From: a virus
Lineage: Duplodnaviria > Heunggongvirae > Uroviricota > Caudoviricetes
Reading direction: 5' to 3' (one strand)
DNA length: 60,442 nt
Virus record (IMG/VR): IMGVR_UViG_2660238269_000009
Shown here: one piece after another, positions 33,001-36,000 of the stretch
Layout of the letters: every line of letters begins with the position of its first letter
Position numbering within the stretch: position 1 is the stretch's first letter
Position numbers: made by a program

Positions 33001-36000
33001 GCATTCGGTTTATGCTCACCCCAGCATCCCCGACGAAGATAACATCATCCAGCCCATGGAAAGAAAAAGAGCAACCAGCATTAGTGAAAATGAAATGCCG
33101 ATGATTACACAGAGGATCTTCGCCAGCATTATGAGTTTGTCTGACATGTTTAATCCTCCCTTCACGATTTCAACGCAATGACCAGTTTTGCCAGCCCATA
33201 CAGCATCGGAGACACAGCGATATACCGACCGCCACCCACTTAATAGCAAAAGCCAGTGCTCTGCTGATGTCATCAGTTACTGGCGCTTTCAGTTCAAGGC
33301 CGTTTTTCATAGTCAACCTCAACAGAATTCGTTTATACTTTTCCATGTTCTCCCTTGCCTTATCCAAGGTCAGAAACACAAAACCCCGCTTGCTGCCAAC
33401 AAACGGGGTTTTTACTTTTATTCACTTAGGTTTTGCCAGTTCGCAGGATTTCGTGTTATCCGTCCGCGTTGGCCAACGTCATTTTTCAGCAAAATATTCT
33501 GCTTATCTGTCGATACCCCAGCACGCCAGCGCGCTCTCCTGGTCACGACGGGATACCTGACCATAACAGTTATTTGAGCGGATACGGCAGTCTCTGCCAC
33601 CGTCCTTAATCCACCAGCGAAGCGCCTCACACGCTCCCCTGCGATCTCCTGCATTAATTCGTTTATAAAACGTCGACGTGAAACACTTACCCGGGCCAAT
33701 GTTGTAAGGACAGAATGACGCAATACCCGCTTTCTGGGGTTCAGTCAGTGGCACTCTGATGTTTTTCTCCACCCATGCCAGCGCCTTATCCCGTTCAATG
33801 GCGTTAACCTGGTCGCATTTTTCCTTCGACAGCTTCATGCCAGGGACGACAGGCTTACCATCCACCCGGGTGGCACCACGGCAGATGGTCCAGATACCCG
33901 CACCATCACGGTATGCCGTGGTGTGGTTACCTTCTTTTTCGTCAAGAAACTGGTCGAGGATTTCAGGCGCAGAAGCACCTGCAGCAATCAGCGCCAGAAC
34001 GACCGCTGATAAACCATAGCGGAATTTCCTGCTCATCAGCTTACTCTCCCCGCGCCGCCTTACGCCGGTCCTCTCTGATTTTGAAATACAGGTTCGTCAG
34101 ATATGTCAGCAGCCCAAACAGCAGACTCCCCAGCACGCCTATTGCCGCCCACTGAGACGGGGAAACCCTGTCCAGCAACTGCAGGAACCAGTAGCCCGTT
34201 CCCACCGCTGACGTGGTGTATGACACACCTGTTGTGATTTTTTCCATCTGGTACATACCCCGTCTCCCGCAAGCCGGAAGCTCACAACAATATAAAGACC
34301 ACCGGCACACACCGATGGTCCCTTGCGCATGCTTACATCATCATGTCGCTGTCAGGTGTGGGGTCACCGCCATCTGAAGCACTCCCCTCACCCGCGATAC
34401 CTTCCGGCTCCGGAACTGCCGGTGCGCCCAGCAGTTCATCCAGAATGGCATCCACTTCTGCATCAAGACGCGCCTCAAGGTTCTGGCGGAGTTTCTGTTT
34501 CAGTGCGCTCAGGACTTCTTCAGAGCGCAGGACTTCCTTCACTGCCTCTGCAGTGACCAGGGATGTAATTTCTGACATGGGATTTTCTCGTTGAAAGGGG
34601 TTATTAAGGAGTAATGGGCTCTTCGGGTTTGCTTCCGGCTGACTGACTGGCGCTGATTTTCTCTGCGGCCCTTTTATCAATCTGCCTGCGCCAGCAATCG
34701 CGCACTGCCCTGTACCCACCCGAAAGAAGATACAGCACACAGACCACCGTACAGAAGTACAGCATTAACTGGTTCAGAAATGTCATGGTTTCTCACCGTG
34801 ATAGTTGACATGATTTACTTATTTTTGTAGAAAAACACCGCAGACTTCGGTGTCATCATGGTCGTTTTACCAGCCGCCAGCATTCATGTAGTGGACAAAG
34901 TTCATCCCTTTCCTTCATTGCTGGCGGCCTTTTTTATCATGCCGCGGCATCCGCGTTGTTCACTTCCACCTTCACACTGTCAATCAGCAACGTATATGTC
35001 GCCGCCTTTGATATGTCTGTCAGTTGCAGTTTGTCCGCCGCCCCTGATGCCGGAGATTTCACCAGTGTGAACGGTGTACCCCGTTTCTCATCCAGTACCG
35101 GCGTCACCTGAATGCTGTTGTTTCCGGCAAACTCAAAAGCCAGTGTGTGCCATCCGTTATCAAAGACCCCGAACGTATCCAGCTTCGCATTCTGCTTCTT
35201 GTGGTACATCGCGTTCAGGTTCGTCGCATCCGTCTGCAGGAAGAAGGACATCAGCATGTCGTTGCCTTCCTCTGACAGCGTCACTCCCTCCGGCAGGGAC
35301 GACAACTGCCAGTAAATACCCAGGGCAAACTGATTCGGCACCAGTGCGCCCGGCACCTTAAACCGCACGCTCACACGTCCGCCTTTCTTCAGCAACTCTG
35401 CCCCCTGCCCGGCGGCATCATGCTCCAGAAACCAGATGTGGCTTTCCGGTTTGTTCAGTTGCAGGGCCTTACCACCGGTGGCACCCTCATCACTGACCAC
35501 AGCCTCAGCGATGTTTTTATTAACACTGTCTCCGCTCGCCGGTTTGTGATAATAGCGCCAGCCCTGTGATGCCAGGTCTTCACCGGACGCCAGCAGACTC
35601 ATCAGGGTTCGGTTACTGACCGGGGCTTCCGGCTCTCTCTCCGGGCCTTCACCGGAAGGTCCGGTGGGCTTCACCGTATCAGGCTGTTTTCCGGTAATGA
35701 ATTCAGCGGTTCTCCCGGCGTGCAACAGAATCGCCGTTGCCAGACGGTCGGAAATAATCCCACGGCGAGCCCATGAACTGAAATGGCTGGCCCTGTCTGC
35801 TGATGTCCAGGTCTTCTGGTCATTACGCCACTTTGAACCGTAATAACCGACGGTTTCCAGGTCCGGGTCTTCTGCCGGGTTATTGGTCTGCACATTCGCA
35901 CCATTCTCATCCGTCATTAACGGTACAAAGAAAATGTTCTGCGACTCCTTACCCTTATACCCTCCGTATACTGATGCATACCCTTCCGCATGACGCTGCT

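Follow-up and report, generated by a model that had tools for sequence, protein, structure and literature searches.

Putative accessory membrane-peptide genes between the endolysin and Rz genes of a lambdoid Escherichia coli prophage

Why would a lambdoid prophage carry two small open reading frames (ORFs) and a hairpin in the middle of its lysis cassette? In phage lambda the endolysin gene R is followed directly by the spanin gene Rz, with an overlap of 4 nt, and rrrQ and rzpQ of the K-12 prophage Qin overlap as well. In the Caudoviricetes record IMGVR_UViG_2660238269_000009 (60,442 nt; "the window" is this whole stretch), conversely, R and Rz are separated by 487 bp (33502..33016, from the R stop to the GTG start of Rz), and the gap is thus an insertion relative to lambda and Qin. 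It holds the hairpin and two minus-strand frames of 58 aa (ORF-A) and 43 aa (ORF-B). The original prediction, made from the sequence alone, had pointed out this departure from the lambda arrangement, which our comparison bears out, and had proposed that small membrane peptides could modulate lysis timing here.

We found that ORF-A and ORF-B are real, conserved genes under purifying selection, annotated only as "hypothetical". We put the probability that they are genuine, late-expressed genes for membrane peptides at roughly 0.85 to 0.9. Their role is a separate matter: that they act as non-essential accessory peptides, tuning the timing or the completeness of envelope disruption, is a tentative proposal to which we give somewhat less than even odds.

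Results

ORF-B is a conserved small gene adjacent to Rz

The grand average of hydropathicity of the ORF-B product is 1.64, and its highest Kyte-Doolittle score over 19 residues is 2.91. AlphaFold2 modeled one helix over residues 2-38, with a predicted local distance difference test (pLDDT) score of 88, and the product is probably a single-pass peptide with N-in/C-out topology. Its residues 1-43 align to positions 7-49 of the 49-position profile phrog_4906 (unknown function) with an E value of 3.3e-20. This family was found only in records named E. coli, where it comprises 89 clusters down to 65% identity, nearly all of exactly 43 aa. The reading frame is open in 19/19 alleles, and the ratio of nonsynonymous to synonymous polymorphism (pN/pS) is 0.55 overall and 0.33 in codons 1-28, with values from 0.67 to 1.4 in the alternative frames of ORF-A and ORF-B. 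Among 5426 complete E. coli genomes, ORF-B-like DNA is present in 1649 (~30%), and the reference genome Sakai of enterohaemorrhagic E. coli (EHEC) carries the homolog ECs_5730 in prophage Sp11. A reading of the ORF-B region as a hidden N-terminal extension of Rz was rejected: although no allele interrupts the Rz frame within ORF-B, its pN/pS there is 1.3.

The very strong ribosome-binding site ascribed to this peptide was confirmed. The Shine-Dalgarno sequence (SD) of ORF-B, AAGGGAGGA, has a pairing energy of −11.3 kcal/mol with the anti-SD at a spacing of 6, and it is stronger than the SDs of S (the holin gene), R, ORF-A, and both possible starts of Rz. The TGA of ORF-B (33018-33016) overlaps the Rz GTG at 33019. 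The claimed overlap between the ORF-B stop and the Rz start therefore holds for this GTG and is lost with the ATG at 33004, which the NCBI Prokaryotic Genome Annotation Pipeline (PGAP) uses instead. As for the Rz start itself, codons 3-5 here (33019-33002, minus strand) read ATA AAC CGA, and other Rz alleles begin with ATG AAC CGC (M-N-R). From the sequence, an ancestral Rz ATG may have mutated to ATA, leaving either GTG 33019, with the N-terminal Arg kept, or ATG 33004.

ORF-A is a frameshifted allele of a conserved gene

The 58-aa ORF is present as predicted and its family is conserved, but the window carries a frameshifted pseudogene of the conserved gene, which encodes 60 aa when intact. 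Both of the small genes first proposed represent conserved families, and only ORF-B is intact in this stretch. The frameshift was seen by alignment to PhiR12_1, is also marked "frameshifted" by PGAP, and replaces the last 19 residues, corresponding to most of the membrane helix. With its C-terminal helix lost to the frameshift, the window allele matches phrog_1115 (unknown function; E value 4.4e-29) over residues 1-44 only, and the match of intact relatives to phrog_1115/phrog_4493 runs end to end. In a context survey of 116 IMG/VR loci (labels beginning with L), the intact 60-aa form was found in 98, and the frameshift of the window only in the near-identical relatives L002 and L006.

The ORF-A family (phrog_1115/4493) ranges over Escherichia, Shigella, and Salmonella. 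A profile search among 1.84 billion proteins returned only 22 representatives (E ≤ 1e-3), and no named or larger protein was among them. A scan of genome contigs with the ORF-A alignment gave no confirmed locus, and the taxonomic survey is accordingly based on protein searches. ORF-A-like DNA occurs in 1555 of the 5426 complete E. coli genomes (~30%), and both ORF-A-like and ORF-B-like DNA reach up to 7 copies per genome.

Coherently with a protein-coding function, the pN/pS of ORF-A is 0.24 in frame vs >1.0 out of frame, and no internal stop was found in 17/17 alleles. The SD, together with an ATG or GTG start two codons before K-Y-K, is kept despite 27-nt upstream indels, and the stop of the intact gene falls inside the SD of ORF-B. 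In the AlphaFold2 model (pLDDT 73), a short helix at the N-terminus leads through a loop into a long one at residues 25-59. The net charge is +6, with basic residues mostly in the N-terminal half, and the best 19-residue Kyte-Doolittle window of the intact form is 1.88; the topology would be tail-anchored and N-in, with a cationic cytoplasmic N-terminal part. The cytoplasmic motif MKNGLExxAPVT is conserved whatever the type of the lysis genes. The proposal of small membrane peptides thus fits both frames, which are conserved genes with predicted helices, packed against Rz in operon fashion.

At the nucleotide level, codons 3-17 of ORF-A (33340-33296, minus strand) form a 45-nt block that the E. 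coli copies share without any difference with the Salmonella enterica locus L122 (CP030203.1), where the remaining gene differs by ~21%. The block coincides with a plus-strand promoter-like site (33310-33339). Either a constraint on the nucleotide sequence or a patch of recent recombination could explain it.

An intrinsic terminator precedes the two genes

The hairpin with T-runs on both sides is present, with an asymmetry that the original prediction had not described. On the minus strand it folds at −21.1 kcal/mol (z −3.3; 1/200 shuffles equally good), and on the plus strand, where it is followed by TTTTTACTTTT, at −14.3 kcal/mol, because two G-U pairs turn into A-C mismatches. This asymmetry, with the A-run 5' and the U-run 3', suggests that the hairpin is mainly a sense-strand terminator. 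It is kept in every related locus, and its variants in Salmonella L122 and in L120 change G-U to A-U or alter both sides of a pair (compensatory). Judging from these sequence features, the hairpin is a genuine intrinsic terminator of the lysis-gene strand.

No minus-strand promoter-like site was found across the gap, and no terminator between ORF-B and Rz. A candidate plus-strand site (TAGTCA-18-TATACT, 9/12 positions matching) faces the hairpin and would yield a ~75-nt RNA complementary to the ribosome-binding site of ORF-A; promoter-like sites are no more frequent in the gap than in shuffled sequences. Rfam returned nothing across the gap at the gathering threshold, and the matches at E ≤ 10 were discarded as terminator-shaped noise (e.g., the rimP leader, E value 0.078). 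The known small RNAs (sRNAs) of EHEC prophages (anti-sRNAs and Pas sRNAs) were also considered and set aside: they map upstream of the holin, outside the R-Rz gap.

The insert is part of a mosaic module

Across the surveyed loci, the prevailing order is S, R, a ~160-nt spacer with the terminator, ORF-A, ORF-B, and Rz. The ~90-nt stretch that follows the R stop in the window is part of a 155-nt module common to >200 Shiga toxin (Stx) and lambdoid phage records. ORF-B abuts Rz in ~110/116 loci, its stop overlapping the Rz start or lying ≤10 nt from it, and this adjacency holds across Rz alleles of 54-100% identity and across two unrelated endolysin types. No locus of the 116 had ORF-B outside the neighborhood of Rz. 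Both genes are intact in the plaque-forming phages of the PhiR12 series. The GC content of the gap is 0.454, vs 0.537 in R and 0.544 in Rz.

The content of the slot varies. ORF-C (45-47 aa, phrog_6632) stands in place of ORF-A in CP-1639 and other phages, and the orders C+B+A' and A+B+A' are also present (L005, L075, and L121). In Sakai Sp11, an antirepressor-like gene, ORF-B, and Rz follow a lysozyme-type endolysin. The Salmonella version has another holin and lysozyme, after which come the same spacer and terminator, then ORF-A and Rz, and ORF-B is missing. The best reading of the sequence data is that the insert (spacer, terminator, ORF-A, and ORF-B) is a horizontally mobile, low-GC mosaic in the late operon of a lambdoid prophage.

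Two side observations concern these relatives. In L122, a very hydrophobic ORF of 32-34 aa (2708-2812; ..MAAMICFVAAFMLACDGRSGWGWFLLVGLIVM) overlaps the stop of the 161-aa lysozyme and lies directly upstream of the spacer-terminator-ORF-A module; it adds one more small membrane peptide of a lysis cassette that annotation has missed. Furthermore, an (I/V)RWW tail is common to the distant ORF-A relatives P0212, P0222, P0224, and P0225 and to ORF-C of the Stx1 phage CP-1639 (L004, 2660-2797). Homology between ORF-A and ORF-C was not established: some members share the IRWW tail, but the hhalign probability is 27.6% over 16 columns.

Pfam, NCBIfam, and PADLOC gave no match for ORF-A, ORF-B, or ORF-C (Pfam on ORF-A and ORF-B at E ≤ 1). 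No mention of the ORF-A and ORF-B peptides was found in the papers searched, and nothing relevant on ECs_5730 or on genes between R and Rz; the supplements of an EHEC small-gene ribosome profiling paper contained no match. The supplements of an Hfq study based on UV cross-linking and analysis of cDNA (PMC4104026) gave no relevant match to lysis-gene names or to the coordinates of the Sakai Sp11 R-Rz gap, which consists of the antirepressor-like gene and ORF-B, without ORF-A.

The surrounding lysis cassette

The cassette lies on the minus strand in the order S21-type holin, lysozyme R, gap, and Rz/Rz1 (Table 1), and the stretch is identical in seven complete E. coli genomes. In one of these, PGAP labels ORF-A "hypothetical protein, frameshifted", ORF-B "hypothetical protein" (WP_001280924.1), and the holin "class II holin family protein".

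Table 1 Features of the lysis region in the window
Feature	Coordinates	Strand	Details
Class II (phage 21 S-type) holin	34041..34256	−	71 aa, N-terminus MYQMEKI; PF04971, E 8.2e-33
Lysozyme R	33503..34036	−	177 aa; PF00959, E 9.6e-26
Untranslated spacer after R stop	33413..33502	−	~90 nt
Predicted intrinsic terminator	33369..33412	−	15-bp stem, 3-nt loop, then UUUUGUGUUUCU; hairpin proper 33412..33380
ORF-A, 58-aa frameshifted allele	33170..33346	−	2-nt "TA" insertion near 33223-33224; intact frame would end at 33162
Candidate promoter-like site	33310..33339	+	TAGTCA-18-TATACT
ORF-B	33016..33147	−	43 aa, single very hydrophobic helix; WP_001280924.1
Rz i-spanin	32546..33019	−	start GTG 33019 or ATG 33004; PF03245, E 1.1e-39
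Putative Rz1 o-spanin	32587..32793	−	inside Rz, +1 frame; proline-rich, lipobox LVVSAC; from ORF list

The N-terminus of R, MSRKFRYGLSAVVLALIAAGASA, beginning with MSRKFR, looks like a signal-arrest-release (SAR) domain, and Stx-phage R proteins of the same type have been described as predicted SAR endolysins (PMC8136144). Rz1 is assigned from its position and sequence.

As in phage 21 S, the holin begins with a dual-Met motif (MYQM; 34256-34245, minus strand), and the 3-residue extension contains no basic residue. The dual start of phage 21 S21 reads MKSM, with a basic residue. Since the extension here lacks one, the usual charge-based antiholin mechanism may not apply. A terminator-like hairpin (34323-34294, minus strand) lies directly upstream of the holin, in the interval between the SASA-esterase gene and the holin, where prophage Pas sRNAs have been reported (bioRxiv 10.64898/2026.05.13.724894); Rfam gave no family match at this hairpin. 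Elsewhere in the prophage, Rfam matches at gathering level were an STnc100 sRNA, a sok antitoxin RNA (hok/sok type I locus), a DicF RNA, and three tRNA genes, with coordinates 37480-37692 (−), 47787-47962 (−), 55855-55906 (+), and 41105-41353 (−).

Discussion

A possible late accessory role in lysis

The absence of a minus-strand promoter in the gap, combined with a terminator ahead of the genes, leads us to expect that ORF-A and ORF-B are expressed late and are silent in the lysogen. In lambdoid phages, Q-modified RNA polymerase starting from pR' passes terminators. ORF-A and ORF-B, for which no promoter of their own was detected, would depend on this polymerase passing the terminator and would hence be made only late, along with S, R, and Rz/Rz1. 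The stop of intact ORF-A falls inside the ORF-B SD and the stop of ORF-B overlaps the Rz start, so translation of the three genes is probably coupled. Produced in step with the holin, the probable SAR endolysin, and the i-spanin, the peptides would then insert in the inner membrane beside the transmembrane domains of the holin and of the i-spanin, where they could adjust the timing or completeness of envelope disruption.

A further step, which we regard as unlikely, would place ORF-A, ORF-B, and the positionally equivalent ORF-C in an unrecognized class of single-helix lysis regulators. Their targets could be, for example, the transmembrane domains of the i-spanin or pinholin, or SAR-endolysin release.

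Known systems offer partial parallels. In phage P2, the membrane-protein gene lysA is flanked by K, the endolysin gene, on one side and by lysB/lysC, the spanin genes, on the other; LysA is ~141 aa long with several transmembrane segments. Ziermann and colleagues are said to have reported in 1994 that lysA is non-essential and affects lysis timing. By position and presumed expression class, it is the nearest analog of ORF-A and ORF-B; unlike lysA, for which the timing phenotype is known, these encode single-helix peptides of 60 and 43 aa, and LysA has no sequence relation to them.

By concept, the nearest systems are the antiholins and the Mu releasin, and family membership fails on sequence and topology. 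The antiholins S21-71 and lambda S107 are likewise small inner-membrane proteins of the lysis cassette whose sole role is timing, but they are alternative products of the holin gene with 2-3 transmembrane segments, whereas ORF-A and ORF-B are separate genes with one predicted helix each and without a PF04971 match. The Mu releasin gp25 (DUF2730), a membrane-tethered protein of 99 aa, is made from the late transcript, and its gene is close to those of the endolysin and the spanins; it has N-out/C-in topology and an anionic domain in the cytoplasm, and it regulates the release of a SAR endolysin with a basic N-terminus (PMC9239132). Here, too, small membrane proteins are encoded near the endolysin and spanin genes, and the N-terminus of R is also basic (MSRKFR). 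Conversely, ORF-A appears to be N-in and tail-anchored, with a charge of +6 and a cationic soluble N-terminus, and has no DUF2730 match, and ORF-B occurs also with the non-SAR M15-type endolysin. Nor does ORF-B resemble a two-component spanin: it ends ~13 residues after the helix, has no PF03245 match, and does not combine an N-terminal transmembrane segment with a periplasmic coiled coil.

Alternative explanations

Several observations weigh against this lysis-tuning role. No holin, antiholin, releasin, or spanin family matched ORF-A or ORF-B in Pfam, NCBIfam, or PHROG. Lambda, Qin, and many other phages are without both genes, which are therefore dispensable. Broken ORF-A alleles occur in several lineages besides the window, L011 has a truncated ORF-C, and the 15 C-terminal codons of ORF-B are weakly constrained (pN/pS 0.74). 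The slot, moreover, holds non-lysis cargo: in the cassette with the M15-type endolysin, a 189-aa antirepressor-like gene precedes ORF-B and Rz, and in L105-L108 (about 3140-4075) a gene for a 311-aa DNA methyltransferase (DPPY motif) stands between ORF-B and Rz. The R-Rz junction thus accepts unrelated cargo, and position alone is weak evidence of function. Finally, in two other Salmonella prophages, the terminator and an ORF-A homolog follow tail-fibre genes, with no recognizable lysis genes nearby.

The main rival explanation is that ORF-A and ORF-B are moron-type cargo riding a permissive slot, unrelated to lysis and acting late or from the prophage, for instance in excluding superinfection at the inner membrane or in modulation of host membrane proteins. 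Classic morons of lambdoid phages, among them lambda bor and lom and HK97 gp15 (the concept goes back to Juhala, Hendrix, and colleagues), are equipped with a promoter of their own and with a terminator downstream, and the prophage expresses them. The insert shares with them its position between genes adjacent in related phages, its lower GC content (45% vs 54-55% in R and Rz), its independent mobility, and the coding of small membrane proteins. This explanation also accounts for the mosaic of antirepressor-like, methyltransferase, and ORF-C alternatives, for the "terminator + ORF-A" unit after tail-fibre genes, which is a classic moron site, and for a MKNGLExxAPVT motif independent of lysis-gene type. 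Of the three moron hallmarks, nevertheless, only position and composition were found: the terminator is upstream, neither an own promoter nor a downstream terminator was detected in the gap, and the genes are tightly packed against Rz by stop/start coupling. Furthermore, PADLOC gave no defense match, and ORF-B never left the neighborhood of Rz in the surveyed loci. We consider pure cargo somewhat unlikely.

A second explanation gives the proteins no consequential function. ORF-A and ORF-B would be decaying or neutral passengers, with ORF-B persisting as an upstream frame that feeds ribosomes to a weak Rz start and so replaces the R-Rz coupling of lambda. The SDs of Rz are in fact weak (−5.7 kcal/mol for GTG and −6.0 for ATG, vs −11.3 for ORF-B), the GTGA overlap favors coupling, ORF-A and ORF-C alleles are often frameshifted or truncated, and the constraint on the ORF-B C-terminus is loose. 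On the other hand, pN/pS is clearly below 1 for ORF-A and for ORF-B codons 1-28 in the annotated frame only, and ORF-B stays 43 aa long in alleles down to 65% identity. ORF-B also remains intact where the methyltransferase gene, whose stop is itself ATGA-coupled to the Rz start, parts it from Rz. We consider the passenger explanation improbable.

The last alternative, a cis-antisense or type I toxin-antitoxin-like module, is very improbable. Sok antisense RNA controls Hok, and P22 sar RNA does likewise for ant; here, a ~75-nt plus-strand RNA ending at the two-sided hairpin would pair with the ORF-A ribosome-binding site and control a toxic membrane peptide. The peptides are hydrophobic and of Hok-like size (40-60 aa), the 9/12-match site is correctly placed, the hairpin folds on the plus strand too, and the 45-nt identity with L122 hints at an extra nucleotide-level constraint, but promoter-like sites are no more numerous than in shuffled sequences, the −35 element is lost in L125, the hairpin is optimized for the minus strand and persists where ORF-C or the antirepressor-like gene replaces ORF-A, no toxin promoter and no Rfam match were found in the gap, the ORF-B SD is exposed rather than sequestered, and no Hfq-bound sRNA coordinates matched the Sakai Sp11 gap, a locus without ORF-A (PMC4104026 supplements).

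Implications

In the annotation of the window, ORF-A ought to be entered as a pseudogene, and ORF-B as a small, conserved membrane protein. If the two genes are cargo only, the R-Rz junction still stands as a defined hot spot where accessory genes collect behind a conserved terminator. If, instead, the peptides tune lysis, they would form a very common, unstudied control layer on the pinholin/SAR-endolysin/spanin pathway of E. coli prophages. Should ORF-A, ORF-B, and ORF-C prove to be regulators of this kind, they would be present in ~30% of E. coli genomes, EHEC prophages included (ECs_5730 of Sakai), and would set lysis timing, hence burst size and toxin release. This would be relevant to the Shiga-toxin phage relatives, in which lysis time governs the release of toxin and phage.

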